A program made the translations under genes and the position numbers. The notes beneath the pieces were generated by a model. It saw only the letters and a program-made list of their open reading frames with translations. It had not been told where the DNA came from and did not search any database. Source: Betaproteobacteria bacterium (lineage in GTDB: Bacteria; Pseudomonadota; Gammaproteobacteria; Burkholderiales; SG8-41). From it: DNA of 40,722 nucleotides. The number at the start of each line of letters is the position of its first letter. Position 1 is the stretch's first letter. The DNA is taken from NCBI GenBank assembly GCA_016202565.1, contig JACQOK010000197.1, forward strand, positions 1-40,722. The letters run 5' to 3'. Shown piece by piece: positions 1 to 39,302 of this stretch.

Positions 1-860
1 AGCGAGAGATCGAGCCTCTTCGCCTTGTAGAGCAGCGCACGAAGATCCTTGGGCAGACACGAGCCACCGAAAGCAAAACCCGGCTTCAGATAGTAGGCAG
101 AGAGGTTGAGCTTGGTGTCCTGGCAGAAGATGTCCATCACCCGATGGGCATCCACGTCCAGCGCCTTGCAGATGTTGCCGATCTCGTTCGCAAAGCCGAC
201 TTTGAGGGCGTGCCACGCATTGTCTGCGTATTTCACCATCTCGGCGGTTTCGATATCGACGCGGACGAGCGGGCCCGGCACGTGGGCATAGAGGCTCGCC
301 AGCAGGTCGCCGCTTGCGCGGTTCAACTCGCCGATGACCGTCTTTGGCGGACGATCGTAATCCTGCACGGCGGTCCCCTCACGCATGAATTCCGGGTTGA
401 CGCAGACGCCGAACTCGACGCCGGCACGCTTTCCGGAGCGCACTTCGAGCGTCGGGATCACCACCTCATGCATGGTGCCGGGCAGCAGCGTGCTGCGCAT
501 CGCCACCACCGGCGCCCCCTGATGCTCCCGCAGCGCCGTCCCTATCTGCTCGCACACGCGCTGCACGTATTGAAGATCGATGCCTCCGTTACGCAAGCTG
601 GGGGTGCCTACGCAAATGAGCGACAGGTCCGAGTGCTGGACCGCAGCGGTGACATCGGTAGTCGCGCACAAGCGGCCCGCCGCAGCCTCCCGTTCAATGA
701 TTTCCGCCAGTCCCGGCTCGATGATCGGCGCCTTGCCGCTATTGATAAGATCGACCTTCAGCCGGTCGGTATCGACGCCGATGATTTCGTGACCGTCCCT
801 GGCCAGACAGGCGGCCGAGACCGCCCCCACGTAGCCGAGACCCATCACACTGATTTTCAT
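1..860 (-). CDS. algD: GDP-mannose 6-dehydrogenase-like nucleotide-sugar dehydrogenase (3' end runs off the window; absent from the ORF track)
   Basis: Manual minus-strand translation from ATG at 860 gives MKISVMGLGYVGAVSAACLARDGHEIIGVD (Rossmann motif). Near the left edge it reads DIFCQDTKLNLSAYYLKPGFAFGGSCLPKDLRAL, the catalytic GGSCLPKD in an AlgD-like context. GGAG RBS lies upstream. Confidence 0.85.
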   Translation of the reverse strand, partial: MKISVMGLGYVGAVSAACLARDGHEIIGVDTDRLKVDLINSGKAPIIEPGLAEIIEREAAAGRLCATTDVTAAVQHSDLSLICVGTPSLRNGGIDLQYVQRVCEQIGTALREHQGAPVVAMRSTLLPGTMHEVVIPTLEVRSGKRAGVEFGVCVNPEFMREGTAVQDYDRPPKTVIGELNRASGDLLASLYAHVPGPLVRVDIETAEMVKYADNAWHALKVGFANEIGNICKALDVDAHRVMDIFCQDTKLNLSAYYLKPGFAFGGSCLPKDLRALLYKAKRLDLS

Positions 861-1352
861 GCTCTACGCTCCAAGGGGCGTGAACCCGATCTGGCAATGC
901 GGCGGTCCACCAGCGGGAAAAGCGCCTGAGCCACGCCGGCTTAGCCTGCAGTCGTGACAGAAAATGGCGACCACAACCGAAGAATGGCGGACTATGTTGA
1001 CATCGGTGCCGTGCCTCGGGACGCGCTCATAGTCCGGTCAGATCAACGTACGCCCACGCTTCTCGGCGTGCCGTGCGGGCTCAAAGGCAGATAGGGCAGT
1101 CGCTTCTAATCTCGCAAGTAGACTCCCAACCGAGACACCGCAACTCGCCGCGCCACGGATCGAACGGTGGCACCTGCCGTCCGGCCTGATGGAGAACCAT
1201 AAGCCGGATGGCTCAATCGTTTAGCCCTTCTTGTTACTTCAAGCACAGCTAGGATTGCTTCCCATGACAGGCTCATGCACCCCACACCGGTCAGACGTGT
1301 AGCTGGCACCCTGCAAGCGTGTTCCTGCTGACCACGCCATATCGGCAATACG

Positions 1353-2510
1353 ATGAAGATCTGCTTCCTCGGATTCGACAATCTGCCCGTGCTCGCGCCT
1401 GAATACAGGCAATACCGCATCGGCGGTGAATCGGTCCAGCAAACCCTCCTCGCGCGGGCATTGGCGCGCCGAGGTCACGATGTATCGATGGTTGTATTGG
1501 ACTGCGGCCAAACGGACGGCGCACAGTGGGACGGAATACGGGTTTTCAAGGCTTACCGCCCCGAAGCCGGGGTACCGGTTCTCCGCTTCATCCATCCTCG
1601 GTGGACGGCTACATGGTCTGCCCTGGCACGGGCCGATGCCGACATTTACTACACGAGCTGCGCGGGCATGCACGTAGGCCTGCTAGGGTCGTTCTGCCGG
1701 CGCTTTCGCAAGCGCTTCGTTTTTCGCACCGCAAGCGATGCAGACTGTGACAAGTCGCGAGTGCGTGTATTCGTACGTTTTGCGCGCGACCGCTGGCTCT
1801 ACGCACGGGGTCTTCGACAGGCGCATGCGATCCTCGTGCAAGGCGTGTCGCAGGCGGAGACCATGGCACGCAGTTTTCGTCTGGCGTCTCGAGTCGCGCG
1901 GATGTTGGTGGAAAGGCCGCTCACAAACGGCACCAAGGACATCGACGTGCTGTGGGTGGGCAATATCAAGCGAGTGAAGAGGCCTGACCGCGTACTCGAG
2001 CTCGCCGGGAATTTGCCGGAACTGCGGATCCATATGGTGGGAGGGGAAAGCCGCGGCGAGGAAGCGCTTTTCCGGGACTTTGCGCATTCGGTTACGGCCC
2101 GCCCCAATGTAGTGTTTCATGGGCGCCTGCCGTACGGGGACACCAATCGGCTGTACGACCGGGCGAGACTGCTGGTCAATACCTCCGACGTAGAGGGATT
2201 TCCCAACGTGTACCTGCAGGCCTGGGTGCGCGGCATGCCCGTGGTGACGTTGATCGATCCCGACGGGGTTATCGCGAGGGAACGGCTTGGTGTTGCCGTA
2301 AATTCCTCCGCTTCCATTCCCGACGCCGTGAAATCCCTGCTGGAGCACCCCGCCGCGTGGCAGGCGGCAAGCGATCGTTGCCGCGCGTTCATGGACAGGG
2401 AATACGGCGAAGACAACGTTCTCGCGCATTACCTTGAGACGTTCTCAGACGTGATGCGCCTGAACGCCGTCGACGGCAGAGTACTTGTGGAGAGCGGACG
2501 CCATGTATAA
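1353..2510 (+). CDS. Glycosyltransferase family 4 (GT-B)
   Basis: N-terminal IGGESVQQTLLARALARRGHDV and C-terminal EGFPNVYLQAW...GMPVV motif. Confidence 0.9.
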   Translation: MKICFLGFDNLPVLAPEYRQYRIGGESVQQTLLARALARRGHDVSMVVLDCGQTDGAQWDGIRVFKAYRPEAGVPVLRFIHPRWTATWSALARADADIYYTSCAGMHVGLLGSFCRRFRKRFVFRTASDADCDKSRVRVFVRFARDRWLYARGLRQAHAILVQGVSQAETMARSFRLASRVARMLVERPLTNGTKDIDVLWVGNIKRVKRPDRVLELAGNLPELRIHMVGGESRGEEALFRDFAHSVTARPNVVFHGRLPYGDTNRLYDRARLLVNTSDVEGFPNVYLQAWVRGMPVVTLIDPDGVIARERLGVAVNSSASIPDAVKSLLEHPAAWQAASDRCRAFMDREYGEDNVLAHYLETFSDVMRLNAVDGRVLVESGRHV

Positions 2511-3543
2511 AACGCCCTTTATCATTACGATCGATACCGAAGGCGACAATCTCTGGGCGAAACCACGAGAGATTACCACTGAGAACGCGGCATATTTGCC
2601 GCGTTTTCAGGCGCTCTGCGAGCGTTTTCAATTCAAACCGGTCTACCTTGCCACATATGAGATGGCGACCTGCGACGTGTTCGTTGAGTTCGCACGCGAC
2701 GTCGCTGCGCGTGGCGCCGGTGAAATCGGCATGCATCTGCACGCCTGGAACTCTCCGCCGCTCTACGCGCTGACCGACGACGATTTCCACTATCAGCCCT
2801 ACCTTATCGAATATCCCGCTCCGGTAATGAAGGAGAAGATCAAGACGCTCACCCGACTGCTGGAAGATCGGTTCGATCAGCAAATGGTCAGCCATCGTGC
2901 CGGTCGGTGGGCTTTCGATGGCCGTTACGCATCGATGCTGCTTGATGCCGGGTATCGCGTGGACTGTTCGGTCACACCCGGTGTCGACTGGAGCGGGAAT
3001 CCGGGTGCGCCCGGCCGAAAGGGCGGCTCCGACTTTACGCACTTTCCCCATCGACCCTACTTCTTTTCGCCCACCGACATCTCCCAACCGGCAAACGGTG
3101 CGCTTCTTGAAGTGCCGATGACCATCCGCTTAGGCCTCCTTTACCGGAAACTGCCCCACGCCTATCGCCTTCCGCTCGTGCGCTGGGCGGCCAAGAAGAT
3201 TTCACCGGCGCCCCGATGGTTATGCCCGACGCCTCTTCACGAAAGGCATAACCTCCATGCAATGCTGGAACTGGCGCGCCGCAAGCGGGTGGCCGGCGCG
3301 AGTCACATGGAGTTCATGCTGCACTCTTCGGAGCTCATGCCCGGCGGCAGTCCTGCTTATCGCACCCGCTCGGATATCGATCGCCTGTATGAGCACCTGA
3401 ACATGCTCTTCGAGGAACTTGCGGAATGGTGCCGTGGAGTGACGCTGAAGGAATTTGATGCGGACCTGCGCAGCTCGCTGGCATCAACGACGTCGTATAT
3501 CGGCGGAGGCGGGCACCTGCTGCGAACGCCAGCCCCGGTCTAA
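2503..3543 (+). CDS. Polysaccharide deacetylase-like protein (WalW/CE4-like)
   Basis: FIITIDTEGDN, EIGMHLHAW, SHRAGRW and DCSVTP motifs. ATG at 2503 overlaps the upstream stop. Confidence 0.8.
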   Translation: MYKTPFIITIDTEGDNLWAKPREITTENAAYLPRFQALCERFQFKPVYLATYEMATCDVFVEFARDVAARGAGEIGMHLHAWNSPPLYALTDDDFHYQPYLIEYPAPVMKEKIKTLTRLLEDRFDQQMVSHRAGRWAFDGRYASMLLDAGYRVDCSVTPGVDWSGNPGAPGRKGGSDFTHFPHRPYFFSPTDISQPANGALLEVPMTIRLGLLYRKLPHAYRLPLVRWAAKKISPAPRWLCPTPLHERHNLHAMLELARRKRVAGASHMEFMLHSSELMPGGSPAYRTRSDIDRLYEHLNMLFEELAEWCRGVTLKEFDADLRSSLASTTSYIGGGGHLLRTPAPV

Positions 3544-3613
3544 GATGGGTATGGTAATGACCCGCCACAAAGGCCGGCTTCAGCTCTGGACAGAACGTAC
3601 GTGATCGCCTGAT

Positions 3614-4969
3614 ATGCGGGACCTCCGTGACATCAAGAAGGGACTTTTCTTCCAGCTTCGCCATGTAGTGCGGAACAACTGGGTGTGCAAGTCCCGTATG
3701 GCAAGCCTTCAATCAAACGAACGGTTGCCGGCGGCACAACTCGATATCCTCCAAGAGCAGTTATTGCGTTCAACGTTGGAAAGCGCACGGCGACGCATTC
3801 CTGCCTATCGCGCGCTGCGCCTGCCAGAGAGAAACTTGAGAAGGCACCTTCAGGAATTGCCCATCATTTCGAAGAACGACCTGCTGACACGCCGGCGGGA
3901 ATTCTATCCAGTGCCCGGCCTGGAGCGCGCCTGGTCCATCAAAGGGATGACCAGCGGCACCACCGGCACGCCTTTGAAAATACTTCGCAGCCTCGATTCG
4001 GTTATCTGGGAGAACGCGTTCCTGCAGCGCCATTGGGCGTGGTCAGGCTACAAGCCCGGAATGAGAAGAGCAACCTTGCGGGGTGATGCCATTGCTCCGG
4101 TGGAGCAGACGTCCCCACCGTTCTGGTTCTTCAATCGAGCGGACAATCAACTGTTGCTGTCATCTCGTCATCTGCGGCCTCCTTACATCGATCAGATCAT
4201 TTCCCGGATACGCGCTTTCCGGCCTCATCTTCTCCAGGCCTATCCCTCCACTGCCTTCGAATTGGCTTCCTACGTGCAACGAAAGGGGGAGCGTCTCGAC
4301 ATACCATTTGTGTATACGGGCTCGGAAATGCTCTATCCCTACCAGCGCGAAGTCATATCCTCAGCCCTGAATACCCGCATCATGGATTTCTATGGCATGG
4401 CAGAACGAGTGGCATTTGCGACCGAGTGCGAATATGGCCGCTATCACGTCAATTCCGAATATTCCTATGTCGAAATTGTCGATGACACGGGACAAGCGAC
4501 TCGCGACGAGGGATATGTCGTAGGCACCACATTTCATAACCACACTATGCCGCTGGTTCGATATCGACTTTCGGACCGCTCGCGCTGGCTGGACGGAGCG
4601 TGTCCCTGCGGCCGAACCTATCCCCTGATCGAGCCGGTCGCGGGCAAATTCGAGGACGTGGTGCTAGGAAGCGCCGGTCACCCCATTAGTCCATCGATTG
4701 TCACGTTTGCTTTCAAGGGATTGCAGCACATAGAAAAGTCCCAGGTCGCGCAGGTCGGCGACGGGGTCTGGGAGATTCGGGTCGTATCGGGTCCGGGTTT
4801 CACTGCAGAAGATCGCGCCGCACTGGTCAACAACATACATGCCATGGTGGACCCCGGCCTCGCTGTAAGGATCGTCGAACGTGCGGACATTCCACGCACG
4901 GCCTCCGGCAAGTATCGCTGGGTGATCAATGAGTGGAAATCAAACCCGTACGGTGAGATCAACAGGTGA
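3614..4969 (+). CDS. Phenylacetate-CoA ligase / CapK-like adenylate-forming protein
   Basis: TSGTTGTP P-loop, YGMAE, MPLVRYRLSD and IPRTASGKYR motifs. Confidence 0.85.
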   Translation: MRDLRDIKKGLFFQLRHVVRNNWVCKSRMASLQSNERLPAAQLDILQEQLLRSTLESARRRIPAYRALRLPERNLRRHLQELPIISKNDLLTRRREFYPVPGLERAWSIKGMTSGTTGTPLKILRSLDSVIWENAFLQRHWAWSGYKPGMRRATLRGDAIAPVEQTSPPFWFFNRADNQLLLSSRHLRPPYIDQIISRIRAFRPHLLQAYPSTAFELASYVQRKGERLDIPFVYTGSEMLYPYQREVISSALNTRIMDFYGMAERVAFATECEYGRYHVNSEYSYVEIVDDTGQATRDEGYVVGTTFHNHTMPLVRYRLSDRSRWLDGACPCGRTYPLIEPVAGKFEDVVLGSAGHPISPSIVTFAFKGLQHIEKSQVAQVGDGVWEIRVVSGPGFTAEDRAALVNNIHAMVDPGLAVRIVERADIPRTASGKYRWVINEWKSNPYGEINR

Positions 4970-5170
4970 TTTCACTGCGCAGGACGAGATCGCCCACAAG
5001 CGAGGCGCGCCAGGCGATGACGGGTGCGGGCACCTTGCGGTCGAAGCGCCGCGAAACCCACCCAAGAATGGGCGCTGTGCAGCCGCAATAGACGTGTATG
5101 CAGGCGGCCCGTTCACCCAGGCCTTCATACTCCGTATAACTGGTAATTACCCGAACGGGAGTGGTCTCCG

Positions 5171-6064
5171 ATGAAAAGACAGCTTGTTCGTTGCACTTCG
5201 AAGATATGTTTCTTCGTTGGCATCTTCCTGATATCAGCGAACACGGTGGGATTACTCACCTCACTGCGGAACGATGAGATTTTTCTTGAGAAGAACGTGC
5301 TTTTCGAGCAAGACATCACGCTGAGCGCAAAGCAGGTCTACGCGGCTATCAATGCTCCTGCAGCCGATAAGAAGTCCTACTTCAACGTATTAACCCACGC
5401 AATAAACAAAGGGATTGCGCACTATTGGCTCGATGAGGGAATCGATAAATATAACCTCCGTATCCCGTTTTCTGAAAACTATCTTCTGTTTATTACAAGT
5501 TTCATCATACCGCAATACTACAGGAAGTACGAGCTTAGAGATTACCGGCTGGCGATAGAACGTGGGGTGGGATTGTGCTCTCAGCATGCGATCATAGTTG
5601 CGGAAATATTGAAGGAGAAGGGAATCGAGTCTGGAATAATGACCCTGCCGGATCATGTTATTGCCATCGCCCGTGTTGACGATGGAAGGAACGAATGGTG
5701 GGTCTTGGACGCCGATTATGGAGTTGTCCTCCCGCACGGCCCCGAGGAGATCAAGAAGACGCCGGACATCATCGCCCCCTATTACCGGAGCCGGGGATAC
5801 GACGAGCGCACTATTGCGACTCTGACATCGAACTATGGAAAGAAAGGAAAAGTGTATCTCGACGGGGCGAAGAATTATGGGTCAAAGATATACTGGGCAG
5901 AGGCCGCTACGTACATCCTGGTTTGGATAATCCCCGGCCTGTTGATGATTCCCTTGATCGTTGCTGCCGGAACCCGGAAAAAGCTCCGCGCGGGCAGCGG
6001 CTATTTCACCGGACGCCGAACCGCCAGCGGGGCCGAATGCTACGGAAGTTCCACGCCGGGATAG
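5171..6064 (+). CDS. Membrane protein with transglutaminase-like (Cys-His-Asp) domain
   Basis: Hydrophobic N- and C-terminal segments flank GLCSQHA...DHVIA...WWVLDADYG. Visibly AT-richer than its neighbours. Confidence 0.6.
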   Translation: MKRQLVRCTSKICFFVGIFLISANTVGLLTSLRNDEIFLEKNVLFEQDITLSAKQVYAAINAPAADKKSYFNVLTHAINKGIAHYWLDEGIDKYNLRIPFSENYLLFITSFIIPQYYRKYELRDYRLAIERGVGLCSQHAIIVAEILKEKGIESGIMTLPDHVIAIARVDDGRNEWWVLDADYGVVLPHGPEEIKKTPDIIAPYYRSRGYDERTIATLTSNYGKKGKVYLDGAKNYGSKIYWAEAATYILVWIIPGLLMIPLIVAAGTRKKLRAGSGYFTGRRTASGAECYGSSTPG

Positions 6065-6151
6065 AACATCGTGCCTTTCCTCTTTCCGGTCAGGTCGCCG
6101 TCATCGTGGGTGTAATACCAGCCGAATCATCCGTCAAAGCGGCCAGATCGC

Positions 6152-8158: not shown

Positions 8159-8248
8159 CGCGCGAGCGATGGAAGACGCCGGCGAATGCCAGTCCGCATC
8201 GAGAATGACGTGCTTGAGCATGTCGCCAGGGAGCCTGAGTCGCCCGGA

Positions 8249-9328: not shown

Positions 9329-9459
9329 CCGGGTATTGTCGGATGCCGGAGTATCACTGGTATGAGGGCGACGTGCTCCATATGGACTGTCAGCGTCCGG
9401 CGCATCGCTTCCGTCCGGCTTCCCGCATCCTGACCCTCTCATTCGCTGCCGCGCTTCGC

Positions 9460-28795: not shown

Positions 28796-28800
28796 CCGGA

Positions 28801-31673: not shown

Positions 31674-31737
31674 GCGTCCGCGCATGGATTACGGAAGAGA
31701 ACCATAGTTCTACGACTCAGCAGTCAGGGAGGGATCA

Positions 31738-33480
31738 ATGAAAAAACTATTACCGGCGATGACGCTCGTCACCGCATTGGCGTGCGGTGCGGCGCAGGCC
31801 GCGTTGCTCTACGTCGACCCGGCCAATCCGGGCGCCACGGACTCCGGCGCCGGAGATGCGCTGCATCCGTACCGCACGCTCACCTACGCCATGAAGCAGC
31901 TCAAGCCCGGGGACACGCTGAACATTGCCGGCGGGACATATCGCGAGTCGCTGATCTTCCCTCAAGTCTCCTGGTCGGCGGGGTCGGCCGTGATACAGCC
32001 GATGAGCAGCGCGCCGGTTTTGATCAAGGGCTCCAACGTCGTGACGGGATGGACCGCCCCGGGGGCCGGGCTATTCGTCAGAAACGGGTGGACCGTGAAC
32101 AGCCAGCAGGTCTTCGTCGATGGCGTATCGTTGCAGCAGATCGGCGGCAAGATCTTCAGCAACGATCCGTGGATCTGGCCCGGGCGCGTGGCCGGCGGGC
32201 TCGCCGAGTTGACCGATAACAGTTTCTATTACGACATTGCCGCGCAGAACCTCTACGTCAAGGTTCCCTTGACTTCGCTTGACGGACATATCGTCGAAGT
32301 AAGCGTGCGGCCGCATCTGGTGTTCGGCAGCGCCGTGGAGAACGTGACGCTGCGCCAATTGCGCTTCCAGCACGCGAACACCACGGCGCTGAATCAGACC
32401 GGCGCCGTGCACCTGTGGCGCAGCAATCGCAACGTGCTCGACGGGCTGGACGTGAGCTATGTGGACGGCACCGGGTTCGACGTCACGGGCGAGGACAATG
32501 TCCTGCGGAACAACAAGGCCAATCGCAACGGACAGCTCGGGATGAAGGTCCGCGGAAAGCGCAATCTCCTCGAGGGCAATGAGACCAGTTTCAATAACAC
32601 CCGCGGCTTCCAGAAGTGGTGGGAAGCCGGCGGCGCGAAGTTTGTCGGCGAGGGCGGGCTCATCGATTCGACGGTCAAGCGCCATGTCGCGGTCGGCAAC
32701 CTCGGCGATGGGATCTGGTTCGACTGGATGAACAGCAACAACCGGATCTACGAGAACCTGTCCGCCTACAACAGCGGCATGGGCATCCACTACGAGGCGA
32801 GCCAGAAGGGCTACATCTACAACAACTACGTGTTCGGCAACCGGCAGCGCGGCATCTATCTGCCGCACAGCTCGGGTTCCGTCGTCGCGTTCAATATGGT
32901 GGCGAATAACCGTTATGAGGGCACTGCCATCGTAGACGAGGGACGTGATCCGACCAACACGTTGCTCAGACCGGTCGGCAACCTCGTGCACGGCAACATC
33001 ATCGCGTGGAACGGCAGGTCCGCCCTCGTGCTGCCGCTGGAACTCGCCGACAACCGCTCCGACTACAACCTCTTCCTGGGTGTCACGCAGCCGGCTTTCT
33101 CGCTGGGCTGGCCTTCGACCACGAGCCCCATCCGCACGGGCCTGGATGCCTGGAGAACCGCGTCCGGCCAGGACCTGCATTCCTGGTTCCAGGTATTCGA
33201 CATTCCGTCCACGCTGGCGACTGCGTTCGAGCAGATGAACCCGTATCCGGACTGGAGCCCCGTGCTCTCGGTCGCCTCCAGTTACTCCCTCCCGGCTCTG
33301 AGCGACATCCTGCCAACGCACACCAAACCCGGGCCCTCGCTGCAGCTTGTAGCTTCCGGTGGCGACACCGGTGGCTCGACGGGTGACACGGGCGGCTCCA
33401 CCGGTGATACCGGAGGTTCCACCGGCGACACGGGTGGTTCGACAAAACCAGGCAAGGGCCTGGGAAGGAACAAGAAATAG
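31738..33480 (+). CDS. Secreted right-handed parallel beta-helix protein with Gly/Ser/Thr/Asp tail
   Basis: Signal peptide ending AAQA, YVDPANPGATDSGAG...PYRTL...PGDTLNIAGGTYRE, and Asn-rich repeats (GDGIWFDW, GMGIHYEAS). GGAGG RBS. Confidence 0.85.
   Translation: MKKLLPAMTLVTALACGAAQAALLYVDPANPGATDSGAGDALHPYRTLTYAMKQLKPGDTLNIAGGTYRESLIFPQVSWSAGSAVIQPMSSAPVLIKGSNVVTGWTAPGAGLFVRNGWTVNSQQVFVDGVSLQQIGGKIFSNDPWIWPGRVAGGLAELTDNSFYYDIAAQNLYVKVPLTSLDGHIVEVSVRPHLVFGSAVENVTLRQLRFQHANTTALNQTGAVHLWRSNRNVLDGLDVSYVDGTGFDVTGEDNVLRNNKANRNGQLGMKVRGKRNLLEGNETSFNNTRGFQKWWEAGGAKFVGEGGLIDSTVKRHVAVGNLGDGIWFDWMNSNNRIYENLSAYNSGMGIHYEASQKGYIYNNYVFGNRQRGIYLPHSSGSVVAFNMVANNRYEGTAIVDEGRDPTNTLLRPVGNLVHGNIIAWNGRSALVLPLELADNRSDYNLFLGVTQPAFSLGWPSTTSPIRTGLDAWRTASGQDLHSWFQVFDIPSTLATAFEQMNPYPDWSPVLSVASSYSLPALSDILPTHTKPGPSLQLVASGGDTGGSTGDTGGSTGDTGGSTGDTGGSTKPGKGLGRNKK
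33361..33444 (+). repeat. (GDTGGST)x4 peptide repeat, codon-diversified
   Basis: Four 21-nt units with identical peptide but varied codons, followed by KPGKGLGRNKK-stop. Confidence 0.9.
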
Positions 33481-33599
33481 ATGCGCTTCCCGCTCGCACG
33501 CAGGCATTGCCGGGACGGCGATCCCGATGATGGCCTGGAACTTACCCAGAGCACGCAATCGGTGAAAAACGTGAATATCGTCGAAGAAAATCCTGAGCA

Positions 33600-33674
33600 C
33601 GGGAAACCGCCTCTGACTTCGTCAAAGTGGGCAAACCGACTTTCGGAGAAATCAGCGATGCGTGTCTTGTGGCG
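33600..33674 (+). pseudogene. Degenerate duplicate of the gspE 3' end
   Basis: Reads RETASDFVKVGKPTFGEISDACLVA against the GspE tail REAALDLVRTGETTLEEINRVTFVT (31596-31670). 47/75 nt identical ungapped by my count. Confidence 0.7.
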
Positions 33675-34464
33675 CGACCATCTGCGTATCGGCCTGGGAT
33701 CGAAGTGGCTCGCCCTCGCCGGCTACCGCCGCGGCCTGCGTCCAACACCGAGCGCAAAAGAAATCGTCGTGGTGGACTCCGCGGACGCTTCGGGGCCGTG
33801 GCAGGCCGCCGTCGATGCGCTGCCCGCCGCGCTTGCGCTGTGGGATCGGCCCCGGCTGGACGTGACGGTGGTGCTCTCGAATCATTTCGTGCGATACGCC
33901 CTGCTGCCCTGGAACGCGACCCTCAAGTCGGAAGCCGAGTGGCTCGCCCTCGCGCGCCACCGCTTCAGCAGCGTGCACGGCCCTCTGGCAGAAGAATGGG
34001 TTGTCCGGGTCGCGGAAACGGGAGGACGTGAAAGCCCGCGTATCGCGAGCGCGATCGATCAGGCGCTGCTGGCGGCCATCGAGGAAGGGATTGCCGGCGC
34101 CGGCGCGTCCCTGGTGTCGGTGCAACCGTATCTGATGGCCGCCTTCAACCGCATGCGCCCGATGATAGGCAATGCGTCGTCCTGGCTCGTGATCGAGGAA
34201 CCCGGCCGTCTCACGCTGGCGCTCATCCAGGGCGGCGTGTGGCGGGCGATTCGCAGTCGGCGCAGAGACGATCCCCGGCACCTGACGCTTCCCGAAGTTC
34301 TCGAGCGCGAAAGCGCCCTTCTCGCACTGGAAGAGCCGTGCACGCGAGTCGTCATCCATACGCACCTCACGGTCGACACACCCATGCACGGCGCATACGA
34401 ACTGTACGACGTGACACCCGACGCGGCAGCCGGTGACCGGGAGCTTGCGATGGCGTTGGAGTAA
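33658..34464 (+). CDS. T2SS GspL/PilM-like cytoplasmic assembly protein
   Basis: Position in the operon, plus VTVVLSNHFVRYALLPW and SVQPYLMAAFN. Start placed at MRVLWRD. Confidence 0.6.
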   Translation: MRVLWRDHLRIGLGSKWLALAGYRRGLRPTPSAKEIVVVDSADASGPWQAAVDALPAALALWDRPRLDVTVVLSNHFVRYALLPWNATLKSEAEWLALARHRFSSVHGPLAEEWVVRVAETGGRESPRIASAIDQALLAAIEEGIAGAGASLVSVQPYLMAAFNRMRPMIGNASSWLVIEEPGRLTLALIQGGVWRAIRSRRRDDPRHLTLPEVLERESALLALEEPCTRVVIHTHLTVDTPMHGAYELYDVTPDAAAGDRELAMALE

Positions 34465-34472
34465 GCCCGACG

Positions 34473-35000
34473 ATGTATATACTCGATCTCGATTTTCGCA
34501 AAACCCGTCCTGCGTCGCCGTGGGCACGGTGGGTGCTGCTCGCACTCGCCATTGCTTTCATGTCAGACCTCGCCGTTTCGTACTACGGCGTTCGCAAGGC
34601 GATCACGCACAACGAGCAGCGCCTGGCCCAACTCGGGCGCTCGATGGATGGCGCCACAAGAGCCGCGCTGACCTCGCGCGCCCCCTCACCGGAGGAAATC
34701 CGGCTCGCCCGCGACACCATTGAGCGGCTCGCCATGCCGTGGGACAACCTCTTCGGCGCGCTCGAGGCAACCGCAAGCGATAAAGTGGCGCTACTCGCGA
34801 TCGAGCCCGACCCCAAGTCCGGAACGGTGCTGATCTCCGGGGAAGCAATAGACTACCCTGCCGCGCTCGACTACGTCTCGCAACTCGGCCGCGCGAGAGC
34901 CCTGGACCGCGCACATCTCGTCCGGCACGAGCGCCAGCAGGACGCTCCGCAACAGCCGGTGACGTTTTCCATTTCAGCGACCTGGAGCAAGGCAAAATGA
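34473..35000 (+). CDS. PilN/GspL-periplasmic-like assembly protein
   Basis: Single TM, coiled coil, and PWDNLFGALE...VALLAIEPDP...ISGEA. Confidence 0.65.
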   Translation: MYILDLDFRKTRPASPWARWVLLALAIAFMSDLAVSYYGVRKAITHNEQRLAQLGRSMDGATRAALTSRAPSPEEIRLARDTIERLAMPWDNLFGALEATASDKVALLAIEPDPKSGTVLISGEAIDYPAALDYVSQLGRARALDRAHLVRHERQQDAPQQPVTFSISATWSKAK

Positions 35001-35536
35001 TCATTTCGAGCACACTGCGGCGGATACGCGATGAGCTGGGCGTCATCGGACTGGCATCGATCGGGCTGCTCGCGGGCGCCGCGTTCTTCCTGTTCTTCGC
35101 GCTGAGGCCGCTCGAGGCGCGCAACGGAGATCTTGAGCGCCAGCTTGCGGTGAACTCGCGCCAGAATCTGTCGTCGGATCCCACATTCATCCGTGCGTCG
35201 ACCCCGGCGGCAAAGATCGCAGCGTTCTACCATTTCCTGAAAACGGAACAACAGCCCACCGATTGGCTTGCGCGGCTCCACGCTGCGGGCCAGGCGACAG
35301 GAGTCGAACTCCGCTCCGCGGATTACCGGCTGCAAAAGACCGGCACGCGCATCGAGCGCTACGAGATCACGCTGCCGGTCAGGGGAAACTACGCACAGAT
35401 CCGCGCCTTCCTCGAAAACGCGCTGGCCGGGATCCCGGTGCTGTCGCTCGACGAGGTGAAATTCAGGAAGGAGCGCGCGAGCGATGCGTCGGTGCAAGCC
35501 GAACTGCGTCTTACGCTTCATCTCGTCAATCCCTGA
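34997..35536 (+). CDS. GspM/PilO-like assembly protein
   Basis: Single TM plus YEITLPVRGNYAQIRAFL. Confidence 0.65.
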   Translation: MIISSTLRRIRDELGVIGLASIGLLAGAAFFLFFALRPLEARNGDLERQLAVNSRQNLSSDPTFIRASTPAAKIAAFYHFLKTEQQPTDWLARLHAAGQATGVELRSADYRLQKTGTRIERYEITLPVRGNYAQIRAFLENALAGIPVLSLDEVKFRKERASDASVQAELRLTLHLVNP

Positions 35537-35558
35537 ACTCGTTGTATTGGGTGAAACC

Positions 35559-36074
35559 ATGACATCATTCCTGACAAGAAATATTCCGCCGCGCGCCATT
35601 CTGGCCGCCGGGGCCATGACGCTGCTCGTCTCGGTCGTGATGGGCCGTGAAAACGGGGAACCGCCTGCGGTCGTCGCGCTTGCCGCTCGCACGGCCGCGC
35701 CGGCTTCTTCGCCCGCGACGGTCGACGATCTCGATCTGCAAAAGCTCACGCGCTCGAGGAAAGCGGAGACCATCGCCGACCTGTTTGCACCCCGCAATCT
35801 GACATTAGCCGCGCTGCCTCAGGTCACAAGTGCCGAACCGGCTCCGCCACCTGCTCCCAGCGCACCGCCGCTCCCGTTCACCTATCTGGGCCAGTTCATC
35901 GACGGCGAGAAGACGGAGGTGTTCGTCACCCTGGGTGATGAGCACTACAGCATCGAAAAGGGCAAGACGATCGACGGTCAGTACAAGGTCGAGAAGGTCA
36001 CCCCAACCGCCGTGACTTTCGTCTATCTTCCGCTCGGGACCCGGCAGAGCCTGCCGATCCCGGTGCTGAAATAA
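35559..36074 (+). CDS. GspC/PilP-like T2SS accessory protein
   Basis: N-terminal hydrophobic segment, DLFAP, Pro-rich linker and APPLPFTYLG...G.TIDGQYKV. Directly upstream of the secretin. Confidence 0.55.
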   Translation: MTSFLTRNIPPRAILAAGAMTLLVSVVMGRENGEPPAVVALAARTAAPASSPATVDDLDLQKLTRSRKAETIADLFAPRNLTLAALPQVTSAEPAPPPAPSAPPLPFTYLGQFIDGEKTEVFVTLGDEHYSIEKGKTIDGQYKVEKVTPTAVTFVYLPLGTRQSLPIPVLK

Positions 36075-36083
36075 GGAATTGCC

Positions 36084-37916
36084 ATGACACGATATATCTG
36101 GATGCTGCTCGCAGCGTTGGTCATCGCCGGCTGTGCGACCCTCTCTCCCACCCCGAATCCCGCTTTCACGGAGGGCCGCACACTGGTCGAGTCCGGTAGC
36201 GTCGAACAGGGTCTTGCGCGCGTGGAGGAGGCGATCAAGGCCGAACCCCGCAATCAGGAATACCGCACCTACTATTACCGGCAGCGCGATCTTGCCGTTC
36301 AGCGCTATATCGCCGTGGCGGACACGGCGCGGAGTACGAACGCCTTCGACGCCGCGGAACAGGGATACCGGCGGGCGCTCGCGCTCGACCCCGCCAATGC
36401 GCGGGCCACGGCCGGCCTCGAGAGCTTGCAGGTGGAGCGCCGACATCGGGCGCTGCTCACCGAAGCGGAAAGCCTGCTCAAGCAAGGCAACGTCGATGCC
36501 GCCCATGCCAAGGCGCGGGAGATCCTGGTCGAAAACTCCACCCACCGCAACGCGCAGGCGCTCATCCGGCGCATCGAACAGCAGAGCATGAAAGCGGCGG
36601 CCGAAACACCGCAGCTCAACGCCGCCCTGCGCAAGCCCATAACGCTCGAATTCCGGGATGCGACCCTGCGTGCGGTCTTTGAATTGATCTCGAAGCACAC
36701 CGGCCTAAACTTCATCTTCGATCGCGACGTGAAGCCGGATCTCCGCACCACGGTGTTCGTCAAGGACACCACGATCGAGGATGTCATCCGCTTCGTGCTC
36801 GTCACGAACCAGCTGGAGCGCAAGGTGCTCAACGAGACGACGCTCCTCATCTATCCCAACACGCCGGCCAAGACCCGCGACTACAGGGAGCTTGTGGTGA
36901 AGAGCTTCTACCTCGCCAATGCCGACGTGAAGAACACGGCGAACATGATCAAGGCGGTGGTCAAGACCCGGGACCTCTATATCGACGAGAAGCTCAACCT
37001 GCTGGTGATCCGCGACACGCCGGAGGCCGTGCGCATCGCCGAGCGCCTGGTGGCGAATCAGGACCTGGCGGAGCCGGAAGTGATGCTCGAGGTCGAAGTG
37101 CTCGAAGTCGGCTACAACAAGCTGAGTGAGATCGGGATCAACTTTCCGGAGCGCGTGAACTTCGGCGCACCGCTCACGGACGGCACGCCGCCCGCGCTGG
37201 CCACACTCGCTCGCAAGAACCTGGTGGCCTTCGCCGTCAATCCGCTTCTCATCCTCAATCTCAAGAGCCAGGACGGGCACACCAACATTCTCGCCAATCC
37301 CCGCATCCGCGTGAAGAACAAGGAAAAGGCCAAGATCCACATCGGCGACAAGGTGCCCGTCATCACCACCACCGCCACCGGGACCGGCTTCGTATCGGAA
37401 TCGGTCAATTATCTCGACGTGGGGCTGAAACTCGAAGTCGAACCGGTCGTGTTCCTCGAAGACGACGTCGGAATCAAGGTCGGGCTCGAGGTCAGCAACA
37501 TCGTGCGGGAGATCCAGAGCAAGAGCGGCACCCTCACCTACCAGGTCGGCACGCGCAATGCCGCCACGACCTTGCGCCTGAAGGACGGCGAGACGCAGGT
37601 GCTGGCCGGTCTCATCAGCGACGAAGACCGCCGCAATGCCGCCAAGGTGCCGCTGGTGGGCGACCTGCCGGTGGTCGGGCGCCTCTTCACGAACAACAAC
37701 GACAGCTCGGCCAAGACCGAGATCGTGCTCCTGATTACACCGCGCGTGGTGCGCAACCTCAAGCGGCCCGGCATCCAGCTCGAGGAATTTCCTTCGGGCA
37801 CCGATGGCACAGTCGGCGCGGCCCCGCTCACGCTGCCGAGCGCGCCCAGGACGGCTGAACGGCCCATACCTTCCGCCGCGGTGCCAGGCTCGACGCCCGC
37901 CACGGTCACTCGCTAG
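36084..37916 (+). CDS. gspD: T2SS secretin GspD, lipoprotein with N-terminal TPR-like region
   Basis: Lipobox-like IAGC, helical repeats, ITLEFRDA (STN), ILANPRIRV, IGDKVP, DGETQVLAGL, KVPLVGDLPVVGRLF and EIVLLITP. Confidence 0.9.
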   Translation: MTRYIWMLLAALVIAGCATLSPTPNPAFTEGRTLVESGSVEQGLARVEEAIKAEPRNQEYRTYYYRQRDLAVQRYIAVADTARSTNAFDAAEQGYRRALALDPANARATAGLESLQVERRHRALLTEAESLLKQGNVDAAHAKAREILVENSTHRNAQALIRRIEQQSMKAAAETPQLNAALRKPITLEFRDATLRAVFELISKHTGLNFIFDRDVKPDLRTTVFVKDTTIEDVIRFVLVTNQLERKVLNETTLLIYPNTPAKTRDYRELVVKSFYLANADVKNTANMIKAVVKTRDLYIDEKLNLLVIRDTPEAVRIAERLVANQDLAEPEVMLEVEVLEVGYNKLSEIGINFPERVNFGAPLTDGTPPALATLARKNLVAFAVNPLLILNLKSQDGHTNILANPRIRVKNKEKAKIHIGDKVPVITTTATGTGFVSESVNYLDVGLKLEVEPVVFLEDDVGIKVGLEVSNIVREIQSKSGTLTYQVGTRNAATTLRLKDGETQVLAGLISDEDRRNAAKVPLVGDLPVVGRLFTNNNDSSAKTEIVLLITPRVVRNLKRPGIQLEEFPSGTDGTVGAAPLTLPSAPRTAERPIPSAAVPGSTPATVTR

Positions 37917-37930
37917 GCGGCTCCGCAACG

Positions 37931-38404
37931 ATGCAACGGTCTGCCGGTTTCACGCTGATCGAGCTGCTCATCACGGTGGCAATCGTGGCGTTGCTCGCCT
38001 CGGTCGCTCTGCCCCTCTCGGAAGTTTCGGTGCAGCGCGGAAAAGAACAGGAGCTGCGGCGCTCGCTGCGTGAAATCCGCGATGCGATCGACGCCTACAA
38101 GCGCCATGCGGACGAAGGACGAATCAAGCGCTCGGCTGACGAATCGGGTTATCCGCCCACGCTTTTCATATTGGTCGAGGGCGTTGCCGACGTGAAAAGC
38201 CCGACCGGGACCAAGATCCGATTCCTGCGGCGCCTGCCCCGCAATCCGTTTTGGAGCGACCCGCAGACGCCACCCGAGCAGACCTGGGGGCTGCGCAGCT
38301 ATGACAGCCCGCACGATGCGCCGCTGGCCGGCCGCGATGTCTTTGACGTCTACTCCCTCAACCCGGGGATCGGGTTGAACGGAATTGCATACAAGGACTG
38401 GTAA
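37931..38404 (+). CDS. T2SS pseudopilin
   Basis: G|FTLIELLI prepilin motif, IRDAIDAY and FLRRLPRNP. Confidence 0.85.
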   Translation: MQRSAGFTLIELLITVAIVALLASVALPLSEVSVQRGKEQELRRSLREIRDAIDAYKRHADEGRIKRSADESGYPPTLFILVEGVADVKSPTGTKIRFLRRLPRNPFWSDPQTPPEQTWGLRSYDSPHDAPLAGRDVFDVYSLNPGIGLNGIAYKDW

Positions 38405-38407
38405 GTC

Positions 38408-38794
38408 GTGCGAGCCCATGCGATACGGAAGGCAGGATTCACCCTGGTCGAGTTGATGGTGGTGCTCGCCATCATCGCGCTGCTCGTTTCCATCGTTGCC
38501 CCGCACTACGTCGGGCGAATTGCCCGGGCCGAAGAAGCGGTGCTCCGGGAAAACCTCACGCTCATGCGCGAGGCGCTGGACAAGCACTATGCCGATGCCG
38601 GCCGCTACCCCGCAGCGCTCGAAGATCTCGTCACGAAGCGCTACCTGCGCAGCATTCCGAGCGACCCGATCACGCAAAGCAGCGCAACGTGGGTCGTGAT
38701 CGCCCCTGCCGATCCGCAGAAGGGTGCGGTCTACGATGTCCGCAGCGGCGCCAAGGGCACCGGCGCAGATGGCAAACCCTATGACCAATGGTAG
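38408..38794 (+). CDS. T2SS pseudopilin (GspG-like)
   Basis: G|FTLVELMVV and YPAALEDLVTKRYLRSIPSDP. Confidence 0.85.
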   Translation: MRAHAIRKAGFTLVELMVVLAIIALLVSIVAPHYVGRIARAEEAVLRENLTLMREALDKHYADAGRYPAALEDLVTKRYLRSIPSDPITQSSATWVVIAPADPQKGAVYDVRSGAKGTGADGKPYDQW

Positions 38795-39302
38795 ACCGCC
38801 CCGCGAGCAAGGAGGCTTCACCTATCTCGCGCTGCTGATCGCAGTGGCGCTGATCGGCGTGGGTCTTGTTGCCACGAGCGCGGTCTGGTCGCAGTCGCGC
38901 CAGCGTGAAAAGGAACAGGAACTGCTGTTCATCGGCAACCAGTTCCGGCAGGCGATCAAGCGCTACTATCAGCGCACCCCGGGCGCGGTCAAGCGCTACC
39001 CTGCGAAGCTGGAGGATCTGCTCGAAGACAAGCGCTATCTCACCAGGCAAAGGTACCTGCGGAGGATCTACGTCGACCCGCTCACCGGGAAAGCGGGGTG
39101 GGGGCTGATTCCGGCCCCGGGTGGGGGCGTCATGGGCGTCTACAGTCTGTCGAACGAAAAGCCGATCAAGACCGGTGGATTCACGGAGGAAGACCAGGCC
39201 TTCGAGGGTGCGAAGCGTTATTCCGAGTGGCGGTTCATCTACCAGCCCCTGGCGACGGCCGCATTGCAGGCACCCCCGCCACCCCGGGCGCCGGCACGCT
39301 AG
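38781..39302 (+). CDS. T2SS minor pseudopilin lacking Glu5 (GspK-like tip)
   Basis: G|FTYLALLI has no E5. Also LEDLLEDKR...YLRRIYVDP. Confidence 0.75.
   Translation: MTNGRPPREQGGFTYLALLIAVALIGVGLVATSAVWSQSRQREKEQELLFIGNQFRQAIKRYYQRTPGAVKRYPAKLEDLLEDKRYLTRQRYLRRIYVDPLTGKAGWGLIPAPGGGVMGVYSLSNEKPIKTGGFTEEDQAFEGAKRYSEWRFIYQPLATAALQAPPPPRAPAR

Follow-up and report, generated by a model that had tools for sequence, protein, structure and literature searches.

An EPS locus next to a divergent 'unorthodox' T2SS operon with two predicted exported carbohydrate-active enzymes in a groundwater betaproteobacterium

The window (the whole stretch of DNA analysed, a complete 40.7-kb MAG contig from a groundwater betaproteobacterium) contains, as checked against the sequence, an EPS locus and a divergent T2SS operon. 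The operon is of the 'unorthodox' kind and has 11 T2SS genes (gspG-F-E, four PilM/N/O/P-like genes, a TPR-secretin lipoprotein gene and three pseudopilin genes), together with genes for two proteins with signal peptides and carbohydrate-active folds. That an EPS locus adjoins a T2SS operon with genes for two predicted exported enzymes suggests a built-in means of cutting or reshaping the cell's own matrix. A functional link between EPS and T2SS is supported because both enzyme families have their ancestry in EPS loci, because the T2SS subclade keeps a cargo slot and because a sigma-54 promoter is conserved.

The EPS locus

The left module is an EPS locus of the Wzx/Wzy-dependent kind, in which EpsE/F/G provide for export and chain length. 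Its genes are as follows.

3-860, minus strand: nucleotide-sugar (UDP-glucose-type) dehydrogenase, truncated at the contig edge (PF03721/PF00984; TIGR03026 326 bits, cut-off 190)
1353-2510, plus: GT4 glycosyltransferase (Glycos_transf_1, Glyco_trans_1_4)
2485-3543, plus: hypothetical protein, no Pfam or NCBIfam match (GC3 0.69, consistent with coding)
3614-4969, plus: PaaK/F390-synthetase-like AMP-dependent ligase (NCBIfam matches under cut-off)
5171-6064, plus: hypothetical protein of lower GC, no family match (GC3 0.62)
6152-8221, minus: heparinase II/III-like protein, signal peptide not visible (Hepar_II_III_C 2e-50, Hepar_II_III_N 4e-22)
8249-9334, minus: TviC-like UDP-hexuronate 4-epimerase of the SDR type, start codon uncertain (PF01370 1.5e-56; NF011728 434 bits, under the cut-off of 760)
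9460-10962, minus: Wzx-type flippase (above Pfam cut-offs: Polysacc_synt_3 33 vs 23, MurJ 32 vs 27)
10978-12303, minus: GT4 glycosyltransferase (Pfam domains)
12500-13591, plus: SDR sugar epimerase/dehydratase, start approximate (Epimerase 1.2e-54)
13578-14915, plus: UDP-glucose 6-dehydrogenase-type enzyme (TIGR03026 451 bits vs 190; three UDPG_MGDP_dh domains)
14951-16075, minus: GT4 glycosyltransferase (Pfam domains)
16180-18183, minus: AsnB-like glutamine amidotransferase (Asn_synthase 2e-94; TIGR01536 437 vs 267)
18129-19598, minus: Wzy-type polymerase / O-antigen-ligase-like membrane protein (Wzy_C 48 vs 32, above the Pfam cut-off)
19677-20645, minus: EpsG tyrosine autokinase (TIGR03029 359 bits vs 314)
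20570-22009, minus: EpsF chain-length determinant (TIGR03017 490 bits vs 423)
22055-23086, minus: EpsE outer-membrane polysaccharide export protein, Wza-like, true start probably near 22972 (TIGR03028 302 bits vs 263; Poly_export, SLBB)

The initial annotation had recognised an EpsE/F/G, Wzx/Wzy arm, and this assignment is borne out: EpsE, EpsF and EpsG, adjacent on one strand (19677-23086), all exceed their NCBIfam equivalog cut-offs, and the Wzx and Wzy proteins exceed those of Pfam. (The EpsG N-terminus carries an MshEN-like motif pair, NF053729 scoring 36.7 against a cut-off of 38.) The same annotation had the EPS arm running leftward and the T2SS rightward; the two modules are indeed divergent, but 6-7 of the 17 EPS-arm genes lie on the plus strand (1353-6064 and ~12500-14915). 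Several members recur in loci of this type. In particular, the heparinase II/III-like protein is an EPS-locus component with orthologues of 40-53% identity in L132, L135, L136 and L138, the AMP-ligase is co-conserved in the same four loci (29-53% identity), and homologues of the GT4 protein at 14951-16075 (39-54% identity) adjoin a PL15-like gene in other EPS loci. Among the window proteins scanned there was no match to a priming sugar transferase (phosphoglycosyl transferase); since the contig stops inside ugd at base 3, that gene may lie beyond it.

Two nucleotide-sugar dehydrogenases, a TviC-like uronate 4-epimerase, an AsnB-like amidotransferase and 3-4 GT4 transferases are encoded here, from which we predict a polymer with uronic acids, possibly in amidated form. 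Lyases require uronates.

The T2SS operon, its enzyme genes and the region upstream

The intergenic region and the right module contain the following features, all on the plus strand.

23369-23407: pair of neighbouring TGTC-N9-CGACA sites at a spacing of 21 nt, which may serve a sigma-54 activator as enhancer (UAS)
23536-23551: sigma-54 -24/-12 promoter element TGGCAT-N5-TTGCT (motif match)
23674-23811: upstream ORF of 45 codons behind a conserved AGGGAGA, its stop overlapping the lyase ATG (ATGA)
23808-28310: predicted exported multidomain lyase, ~1,500 aa (DUF4962 and Hepar_II_III_C, three fn3, PelZ-like pectate-lyase module)
28328-28795: GspG major pseudopilin (TIGR01710 182 bits, cut-off 89)
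28801-29988: GspF-family platform protein (T2SSF 3e-51; TIGR02120 267, under the cut-off of 424)
29985-31673: GspE/PilB-family assembly ATPase (T2SSE 1e-122; TIGR02533 493, under the cut-off of 630)
31738-33480: predicted exported right-handed beta-helix carbohydrate-active enzyme (Beta_helix/NosD domains)
33481-34464: PilM/GspL-cytoplasmic-domain-like protein, a weak assignment (position; ESM Atlas 0.93-0.94 to PilM/HofM clusters)
34473-35000: PilN-like bitopic protein (PF05137 24.0 vs 22.8)
34997-35536: GspM subtype b / PilO-like protein (PF10741, T2SSM_b, 29.0 vs 21.7)
35484-36074: PilP / GspC-HR-like protein, putatively contacting the secretin and probably starting at 35559 (predicted fold)
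36084-37916: secretin lipoprotein with N-terminal TPR region and STN (Secretin 9e-40, STN, Secretin_N, TPR; lipobox VIAGC)
37931-38404, 38408-38794 and 38724-39302: three small prepilin-type (pseudo)pilins (N_methyl motif; GspG-like matches under cut-off)

Of the canonical T2SS equivalog cut-offs, that of GspG is passed and those of GspD, GspE and GspF are not, though the Pfam domains are present; the TPR-secretin falls under the cut-off of every equivalog model (TIGR02517, GspD, 154 vs 351). A search of the entire genome (86% complete) gave no match to GspK (PF03934). Instead of a complete H-I-J-K set of minor pseudopilins there are three small prepilin-type genes, whose order is kept in most loci that reach them. 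There is no prepilin peptidase within the window. The gene that the initial annotation called GspL-like has a counterpart at this place in most loci extending that far, and a language-model lead in its favour, but its product has no Pfam, NCBIfam or PDB family match. The PilP/GspC-HR-like protein lacks a PDZ domain and a Pfam match; its model has a C-terminal domain of 60 residues with pLDDT >90, and PilP, GspC-HR and PulC-HR make up the ten best matches of this domain in the PDB (E about 0.02-0.1; target-normalised TM mostly 0.43-0.80, one 0.30), and a profile search against the PDB placed PilP on top (E 0.077). The order gspG-F-E, four small genes, TPR-secretin and three pseudopilins recurs in 80 named loci, in R. 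solanacearum Po82 and in E. terrae. Judged by gene content and order, the right module belongs to the 'unorthodox' T2SS family of Betaproteobacteria, with a predicted PilM/N/O/P-like alignment complex and a putatively self-piloting TPR-secretin lipoprotein.

Domains, signal peptides and the beta-helix model uphold the initial claim that this operon holds two signal-peptide genes with carbohydrate-active folds. The first, the lyase gene, ends 17 nt before gspG, exactly as first annotated (28310 to 28328), and starts at either 23808 or 23874; its signal peptide ends at ...AAQA, followed by QT. The N-module matches the oligo-alginate lyase PDB 3a0o (8.9e-37, residues 195-607), an enzyme of CAZy family PL15. 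Three fn3 repeats (26188-27029) separate it from a C-module that matches pectate lyase 9buj (6.7e-21, over about 200 residues) and NF041900 (PelZ; 256 bits, under the cut-off of 840). We infer a PL15-like, exo-type N-module and a PL1-like C-module, the activity of both being predicted. The second gene, placed between gspE and the L-like gene, encodes a protein with a signal peptide (MKKLL...AAQA) and a model pLDDT of 87; nearly all Foldseek matches listed for it are phage tailspikes/depolymerases or beta-helix enzymes active on carbohydrates. A beta-helix gene at this site is absent from all other loci compared and from four genus genomes, and so its presence in the T2SS operon is, on this comparison, apparently a lineage-specific insertion. 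Lyase, hydrolase and epimerase are candidate activities for the two cargo enzymes. Independent assemblies support these junctions: in four groundwater runs from two studies, contigs read across from the lyase gene into gspG and across either flank of the beta-helix gene, and one contig from the second study runs from the end of epsF through epsE and the intergenic region into the lyase gene, of which it includes the first ~1.3 kb.

The intergenic region had been proposed to be a shared regulatory region. Divergent modules do flank it, but a recognisable promoter was found there for the T2SS arm only, and none common to the EPS arm. The sigma-54 motif has a single match in the 40.7-kb window (0.08 expected) and TGTC-N9-CGACA has six (0.38 expected); the element and the two sites upstream of the lyase are kept in 3/3 genus genomes (G001 and G006 included). 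Among 11 loci scanned, namely ten subclade relatives and E. terrae, three have matches to 10 of the 11 positions of the sigma-54 consensus at a distance of 52-107 nt ahead of the first cargo gene. The upstream ORF has the same layout in G001, with 41 codons, and is absent in G006 as we read the alignment. Terminator-like sites inside the operon are not in excess (16 vs 14.2 expected).

Destination and target of the enzymes

The reading that we prefer, at a probability of about 0.5, is that the lyase and the beta-helix enzyme are exported by this T2SS and act on the neighbouring uronic-acid EPS. Activated from the tandem upstream site, the sigma-54 promoter would drive the lyase gene and the entire T2SS operon as one transcript; the lyase (PL15-like exo-type and PL1-like modules, fn3 stalk) and the beta-helix enzyme would cross the inner membrane by Sec, and this T2SS would then drive both out through the secretin. 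Once outside, they would cut or alter the uronic-acid EPS so as to trim the matrix or allow release or dispersal. Co-transcription, export through the T2SS and the cell's own polymer as substrate are steps that we infer.

Both cargo families are EPS-locus families elsewhere. In 7/8 contexts fetched, PL15-like homologues have GT4, AsnB, AMP-ligase, cytoplasmic heparinase-like, Ugd or EpsEFG genes around them, and in 6/7 the beta-helix homologues are flanked by GT4 genes or close to EpsEFG; every homologue examined has a signal peptide, and none of these 15 other contexts has T2SS genes nearby. By analogy with AlgL and AlgG, both families may act in the periplasm in those contexts. This raises the possibility, which we regard as unlikely, that the window's enzymes too are periplasmic, serving AlgL/AlgG-like quality control or modification, and are chance neighbours in the T2SS operon instead of its substrates. 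Consistent with such a role, Foldseek places AlgG and the AlgE epimerases among the structures close to that of the beta-helix protein, whose family does not track the T2SS family (both in 2/7 genomes, 5/7 being without this T2SS family). However, the window lyase exceeds its EPS-locus homologues (770-900 aa) by about 600-700 aa, and the extra length consists of the three fn3 repeats and the second lyase module, an architecture typical for extracellular enzymes. The periplasmic role is also opposed by the Ig-repeat and lyase genes that fill the same slot across the subclade, and by the presence of this T2SS family in 10/11 genomes with a PL15-like protein as against 108/289 without, a count drawn from related, non-independent genomes and informative in two families only (f10, 3/3 vs 0/4; f6, 3/3 vs 2/4).

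A survey of gene neighbourhoods, as the initial annotation had proposed, gave opposite answers on its two predictions. The T2SS core is found in 80/80 named betaproteobacterial loci and in 119/301 genomes of the order, yet linkage to EPS genes is not conserved: EpsE/F/G adjoin this T2SS family in 0/80 named loci and 0/18 order relatives outside the genus, and do so within the genus only (G001, G006). Variable cargo in the same slot, on the other hand, was found in the window's own T2SS subclade. In the GspE tree the window falls inside a 13-row clade (SH-aLRT 99), and a large same-strand gene ends within about 250 nt of gspG in 11 of the 13 rows, the other two being cut by contig ends so that 11 members are assessable. 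Ten of these upstream genes were scanned: Big_7 repeats occur in eight, Polysacc_lyase in three, GHL15 in one and CBM6 in one; five have Ig-like domains alone and one has no family at all. Same-strand second genes give near-threshold Beta_helix matches (4/4), and one relative (L046) has two further Polysacc_lyase genes between gspG and gspF. Past the cargo genes, the relatives' neighbour is a NarL-type response regulator (3/10), an NRPS-like gene or other.

This distribution could also be expected if the T2SS and lyases served foraging, breaking down foreign polyuronates (pectin, alginate-like polymers or other microbes' EPS) as food, with adjacency to the cell's own EPS locus a genus-specific accident. 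The restriction of the linkage to the genus, the relatives with other lyase, GHL15 or CBM6 cargo and no adjoining EPS genes, and the catabolic nature of the nearest solved relatives (the oligo-alginate lyase Atu3025 and a pectate lyase) all favour foraging. We nevertheless consider it unlikely: both enzyme families recur inside EPS biosynthesis loci, not catabolic loci, and family scans of the window proteins revealed no uptake or uronate-catabolism genes. That the machine makes an adhesive surface fibre, a pilus with the enzymes as mere operon passengers, accords with the T4aP-type alignment complex (PilN Pfam match, PilP fold, PilM-like features), the missing GspK and the sub-cut-off GspD/E/F scores, but is very improbable given a major subunit that passes the GspG cut-off, an operon without a PilT-like retraction ATPase, exported enzymes embedded in the operon of many members and E. 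terrae genes that NCBI's pipeline names as T2SS genes.

Comparison with known systems

The initial annotation's premise that T2SS cargo is usually encoded elsewhere overstated the novelty, for cis-encoded T2SS cargo is classical. Examples are Klebsiella Pul with pulA, a carbohydrate-active enzyme gene transcribed divergently from pulC-O, and Pseudomonas Hxc with LapA and Txc with CbpE. Pul, Hxc and Txc are canonical GspC-O machines whose cargo targets foreign substrates, and we know of no tie between them and an EPS biosynthesis locus; the window likewise has a T2SS with candidate cargo in cis, but its machine is of the 'unorthodox' kind and adjoins an EPS locus.

Enzymes acting on self-made polymers have other precedents. 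The rhizobial EPS glycanases ExsH, PlyA and PlyB are exported by the type I system PrsDE and trim their own Wzx/Wzy-type acidic EPS; unlike the window, with its T2SS and PL15/PL1 fusion, these systems employ a T1SS and glycanases. Alginate AlgL/AlgG and Vibrio cholerae RbmB are lyase/beta-helix enzymes of an EPS locus that act on self-made polymer; AlgL and AlgG are periplasmic and, to our knowledge, the RbmB gene is not part of any T2SS operon. The PDB entries for this comparison, 4nk6/4ozy and 9ozd, are among the Foldseek matches of the beta-helix protein.

With the Methylobacillus-type EpsE/F/G and PEP-CTERM/exosortase systems (Haft 2006, PMC1569441), the window shares matches to the EpsE, EpsF and EpsG models and the theme of sigma-54 control. 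In the same paper, the 34th match to the PEP-CTERM profile is NE1609, a T2SS-E gene of N. europaea. An exosortase (TIGR02602) has no match in the 86%-complete genome, the TTTACA activator motif described there is absent from the window and neither cargo protein has a PEP-CTERM tail.

The closest likeness is to the 'unorthodox' T2SS of Ralstonia solanacearum, to whose secretin the window secretin has 47% identity across 99% of its length. The gene map of Po82 has the gene order in common with the window (gspG-F-E, four 'hypothetical' genes, gspD, three pseudopilins), and this order fits the description in PMC5080846; the parts of that paper on which we draw do not state a cargo or function. Unlike the R. 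solanacearum system as described there, the window's subclade has enzyme genes in cis, and the window's T2SS adjoins an EPS locus.

Anatomy of the two divergent arms

The window spans the entire contig C79, one of the 491 contigs of a MAG that is 86% complete, and near-identical DNA is present in groundwater metagenome runs from two studies. DNA contigs from four runs of two studies bridge the junction between the lyase gene and gspG as well as both flanks of the beta-helix gene, and a single contig from the second study runs from the end of epsF through epsE and the intergenic region into the lyase gene, of which it covers the first ~1.3 kb. Genes were called as ORFs with high GC3 and annotated with Pfam and NCBIfam, and an Rfam search of the window returned no family. 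The main features are as follows.

3-23086, the EPS arm
19677-20645 (-), epsG, whose product carries at its N-terminus (residues about 46-101) two tandem MshEN-like motifs, SIGSILVERGKL...Q and RFGEAAIWLGLI...Q
23808-39302, the T2SS arm
23808-28310 (+), the lyase gene (PL15-like module, fn3, PL1/PelZ-like module)
31738-33480 (+), the beta-helix gene
33481-34464 (+), the L-like gene
35484-36074 (+), the gene for a 196-aa protein
39098-39895, an ORF with a GC3 of 0.60, non-coding-like
39855-40169 (-), a DUF2188 ORF past the operon
40293-40595 (+), a 100-aa ORF without a family, also past the operon

The EPS arm, which the initial annotation had running left, does so only roughly, with 7 of its 17 genes on the + strand. 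EpsE, EpsF and EpsG each exceed their NCBIfam equivalog cut-offs. The rest of the arm encodes a Wzy_C protein, a Wzx/MurJ-like flippase and GT4 transferases for transport and assembly, an AsnB-like amidotransferase, two nucleotide-sugar dehydrogenases, a TviC-like uronate 4-epimerase (434 bits, below the cut-off) and a second SDR enzyme among the sugar enzymes, together with a PaaK-like ligase and a heparinase II/III-like protein that has no visible signal peptide. From this enzyme set we predict that the polymer contains uronic acid. No priming transferase was seen in the window, and the contig breaks off inside ugd. EpsG scores 36.7 bits against NF053729, 'c-di-GMP-binding domain, MshE-related' (cut-off 38), and c-di-GMP may gate export of the EPS. 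A PaaK-like AMP-ligase travels with a GT4, a signal-peptide-less heparinase II/III-like protein and Ugd in EpsEFG-type loci of several families (window 3614-8221; loci L132, L135, L136 and L138).

The anatomy first described is real and shows more structure than that description could capture. In the T2SS arm the lyase gene comes first, 17 nt before gspG, and is followed by gspF, gspE, the beta-helix gene, which stands between gspE and the L-like gene, and then by genes for a PilN-like protein, a GspM_b-like protein, the 196-aa protein, a TPR-STN-secretin lipoprotein and three prepilin-type proteins. GspG alone reaches its NCBIfam equivalog cut-off; GspD, GspE and GspF fall short. For the L-like protein, neither Pfam nor a profile search against PDB sequences gave a match, and its resemblance to PilM/HofM clusters in the ESM Atlas (0.93-0.94) serves as a lead only. 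The 196-aa protein was modelled with a mean pLDDT of 70.6, rising above 90 in its C-terminal beta domain, for which the ten best PDB structure matches are all PilP or GspC/PulC HR domains (target-normalised TM mostly 0.43-0.80, with one at 0.30; rmsd ~2.5 Å for the closest; E ~0.02-0.1); its profile reached PilP among PDB sequences only at an E of 0.077. A GspK domain is absent across the whole genome (MAG 86% complete), and GspE is without the RLGxx c-di-GMP motif. Given this pattern of domains and scores across the genes of the arm, the machine appears to be a GspG pseudopilus on a PilM/N/O/P/Q-like scaffold.

Linkage, distribution and the cargo slot

Linkage of the two arms was surveyed in 80 named loci, each with flanks of up to 10 kb, drawn from an alignment of GspF orthologues; every one comes from a MAG, most carrying the label Betaproteobacteria or Burkholderiales and a few another. 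When all proteins of the window were compared with these loci by tblastn, the core gene order was found in 80 of 80, as far as each contig reaches. EpsE, EpsF or EpsG was found by tblastn in none of them (upstream of gspG at least 6 kb was available in 49 and at least 3 kb in 61, a few of these lengths being measured from gspF instead), any EPS-arm protein was matched in only two (GT4-like matches in L042 and L046), and the beta-helix gene stood between gspE and the L-like gene in 0/80. The outcome was the same for 18 regions of order relatives, whose upstream neighbours are unrelated, among them RHS proteins, a UvrA paralogue, Ada, TctC and a PEP-CTERM protein. The EpsG-F-E order facing the lyase gene is repeated only in two genomes of the same genus, G001 and G006; in a third, G005, the lyase gene and gspG lie at a contig end. 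Because EpsEFG are missing from the 80 loci and the 18 order regions and the layout recurs in G001 and G006 only, the adjacency of T2SS and EPS genes is a genus-level trait, and outside the genus the strict claim of a conserved EPS-T2SS module fails.

The machine belongs to a known, uncharacterised family, the 'unorthodox' T2SSs. Its secretin has full-length orthologues in 138 PLSDB records, with identities of 47% to those of R. solanacearum megaplasmids, 48% to Paraburkholderia and 53.5% to Eleftheria terrae, and the loci of R. solanacearum Po82 and E. terrae have the gene order of the window. In a genome paper, the 'unorthodox' T2SSs of R. solanacearum are described as having seven core genes, and one carries four hypothetical genes between gspE and gspD (PMC5080846). 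The literature and record listings covered assign no cargo or role to these systems. Of 301 genomes sampled from the order, 119 (~40%) have the family, as do ~20 of 61 closer relatives, its carriers including Nitrosomonas, Gallionella, Thiobacillus, Ralstonia and Paraburkholderia; the tallies of closer relatives, of beta-helix homologues and of the family in the order each include one unpublished genome (G014, G062 and G237), none of which contributed sequence, and no claim depends on any of these alone. The genome of the window holds a second, paralogous copy, on contigs C291 (L120) and C4 (L119), with neither the beta-helix insertion nor an inserted enzyme gene; its GspE is 60% identical and falls in a different clade, and its secretin is 43-71% identical. 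Two copies also occur in MAG021 (L042, L098) and SMAG_U12506 (L054, L079). On the E. terrae plasmid NZ_CP106952.1 (L141; locus 4734-8756, 20830-21489), where the secretin is annotated 'cohesin domain-containing protein', a hypothetical gene of 1,340 aa stops 9 nt short of gspG, and downstream of the operon comes a gene for a PEP-CTERM protein; the 1,340-aa protein has no PDB sequence match.

A GspE tree with 82 rows (quick search in IQ-TREE, LG+G4) places the window within a clade of 13 rows with an SH-aLRT of 99. A large same-strand ORF ends -1 to 243 nt before gspG in 11 of these rows, and the other two (L043, L044) offer under 0.9 kb upstream; in L041, L045, L051 and L053 the slot is present and GspE is too partial for the tree. 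Ten slot genes were scanned: Big_7 was found in eight, Polysacc_lyase in three (one of which also has CBM6/35, the only such case) and GHL15 with fn3 in one, while five have Ig-like domains only and one has no family. One step upstream of the slot, all four same-strand genes match Beta_helix near threshold (22-26 bits; cut-off 25.9). L046 has two more Polysacc_lyase genes between gspG and gspF, and at that position L089 carries a Peptidase_M10 gene. Outside the subclade the gene upstream of gspG is heterogeneous (SLT-LysM, subtilase, 5'-nucleotidase, kinases, pyruvate kinase); all four Nitrosomonas MAGs (L086, L095, L100, L113) have a 227-aa ORF 137-180 nt upstream of gspG, which in L095, the one scanned, is a Zn_peptidase_2. 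Similar-sized ORFs lie upstream of gspG in L077 and L116. The expectation of variable cargo in the same slot is thus borne out in the window's GspE subclade, and cargo in the operon is a subclade trait.

Ancestry of the cargo genes and the control region

The lyase begins with a long leader (~85 aa in the window's genome) followed by a signal peptide, ...AAQA|QT. Its N-module matches the oligo-alginate lyase 3a0o (8.9e-37) and the heparinase II/III-like 6lja, its C-module matches the pectate lyase 9buj at 6.7e-21, with the PelZ model below cut-off, and its three fn3 repeats derive from a 285-bp array at 26188-27029 (3.0 copies, 87% matches). Contig depth rises three- to four-fold over this array, and the contigs of G001, G005 and G006 break in or beside the lyase gene; the repeat copy number may therefore be variable or collapsed. 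The beta-helix protein has a classical signal peptide, and its model (pLDDT 87) settles the predicted fold class of this putative enzyme as a right-handed beta-helix. Its best structural neighbours are a GH120 xylosidase, BT_1002, the AlgE4/AlgE6 and AlgG epimerases, a K1 capsule lyase, Pel9A and RbmB; against PDB sequences it gave no useful match, and by phmmer it is not similar to the beta-helix genes upstream of gspG in L040, L041, L050 and L051. Its last ~40 residues, ending KPGKGLGRNKK, are predicted to be disordered (pLDDT <50), and its homologues (L125-L131) have a conserved C-terminal tail, ...(R/K/S)xPGPxx.

The PL15-like module has homologues in 12 of the 301 order genomes. In seven of eight contexts the gene lies among homologues of the window's EPS genes (GT4c, AsnB, the ligase, the cytoplasmic heparinase-like protein, Ugd), and five of the seven also have EpsE/F/G no more than 10 kb away; L139 has none of those EPS genes. 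Beta-helix homologues occur in 8/301 genomes, and in six of seven contexts, one of them a 65%-identical paralogue in the window's own genome (C395), the gene stands between GT4 genes and/or near EpsE/F/G; L128 shows neither, and the gene was not found in the same-genus genomes G001, G004, G005 and G006. No T2SS genes lie in the 15 fetched contexts of either family. The homologues have signal peptides, the beta-helix proteins measuring ~550 aa and the PL15-like proteins 770-900 aa (one ~1,000). Since its EPS-locus homologues are shorter, the window's lyase has gained an fn3 stalk and a second lyase module, and comparison of contexts traces both cargo families to EPS loci.

The T2SS family is present in 10 of the 11 other genomes with a PL15-like protein versus 108 of 289 without one (Fisher p = 5e-4, related genomes not being independent); informative families within the order are only f10 (3/3 versus 0/4) and f6 (3/3 versus 2/4). 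Each of the three f10 genomes carries the secretin gene on the same contig as the lyase gene, at a distance of 27-36 kb, with unrelated genes between. The beta-helix family coincides with the T2SS family in 2/7 genomes. G154:C1, G197:C1 and G280:C3 (L135-L138, L142-L147), from three genera of one family, show a looser yet conserved neighbourhood, in which 27-36 kb with ~1,000-aa ORFs separate a T2SS operon from the PL15-like gene belonging to an EpsEFG locus.

The sigma-54 pattern TGGYAY-N5-TTGCW has a single match in the window, at 23536 (+), with 0.08 expected, and recurs upstream of the lyase gene in G001 and G006. A three-way alignment of these intergenic regions shows conservation of two adjacent TGTC-N9-CGACA sites, at 23369 and 23390 (six matches in the window versus 0.38 expected), and of the Shine-Dalgarno sequence AGGGAGA. 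In the window this is followed by a 45-codon uORF (23674-23811) whose stop overlaps the lyase start as ATGA; from the alignment, G001 has a 41-codon uORF with the same overlap, and in G006 the signal peptide follows straight after the Shine-Dalgarno sequence. In L042, L046 and L048, three of 11 regions scanned, the first cargo gene is preceded at 52-107 nt by matches to 10 of the 11 sigma-54 consensus positions; the whole window holds two such matches over both strands. Co-regulation of the two arms is unproven, since no sigma-54 motif in the window faces the EPS arm. Terminator-like sites are about as frequent in the operon as expected by chance, and Haft's activator motif ending TTTACA was not seen near the promoter. 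A link to PEP-CTERM was dropped, exosortase being absent from the genome (86% complete) and the cargo being without PEP-CTERM tails.

Possible role and known systems

We assign a probability of roughly one in three to the following joint reading. A paralogous branch of the betaproteobacterial 'unorthodox' T2SS would be a sigma-54-switched exporter with cargo-cassette slots for matrix-polysaccharide enzymes; in the genus of the window it would have taken over the lyase and beta-helix enzyme from an EpsEFG locus, turning periplasmic EPS-processing enzymes into secreted ones and forming a single make-and-dissolve matrix module; and more widely, the T2SS family would have trans-encoded substrates in the PL15-like enzymes that belong to EpsEFG loci. 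Cargo ancestry, the subclade cargo slot and shared sigma-54 control, as read from sequence, lend independent support to the functional idea of making and remodelling a matrix.

A subclade with cis-encoded enzymes provides a concrete cargo hypothesis for the 'unorthodox' T2SS. If the enzymes act on the neighbouring EPS, the locus would be a compact genetic switch with which groundwater and soil bacteria build or dissolve flocs or biofilms, and, if the reading is true, periplasmic EPS enzymes would have been recruited to a secretion system through domain accretion and gene relocation. No report of an EPS-linked T2SS with lyase cargo was found in the literature covered, which took in few subscription journals. 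Cis-encoded T2SS cargo is known, for example in Pul/PulA, as are lyases that act on self-EPS, such as AlgL, and secreted EPS glycanases, such as ExsH with PrsDE.
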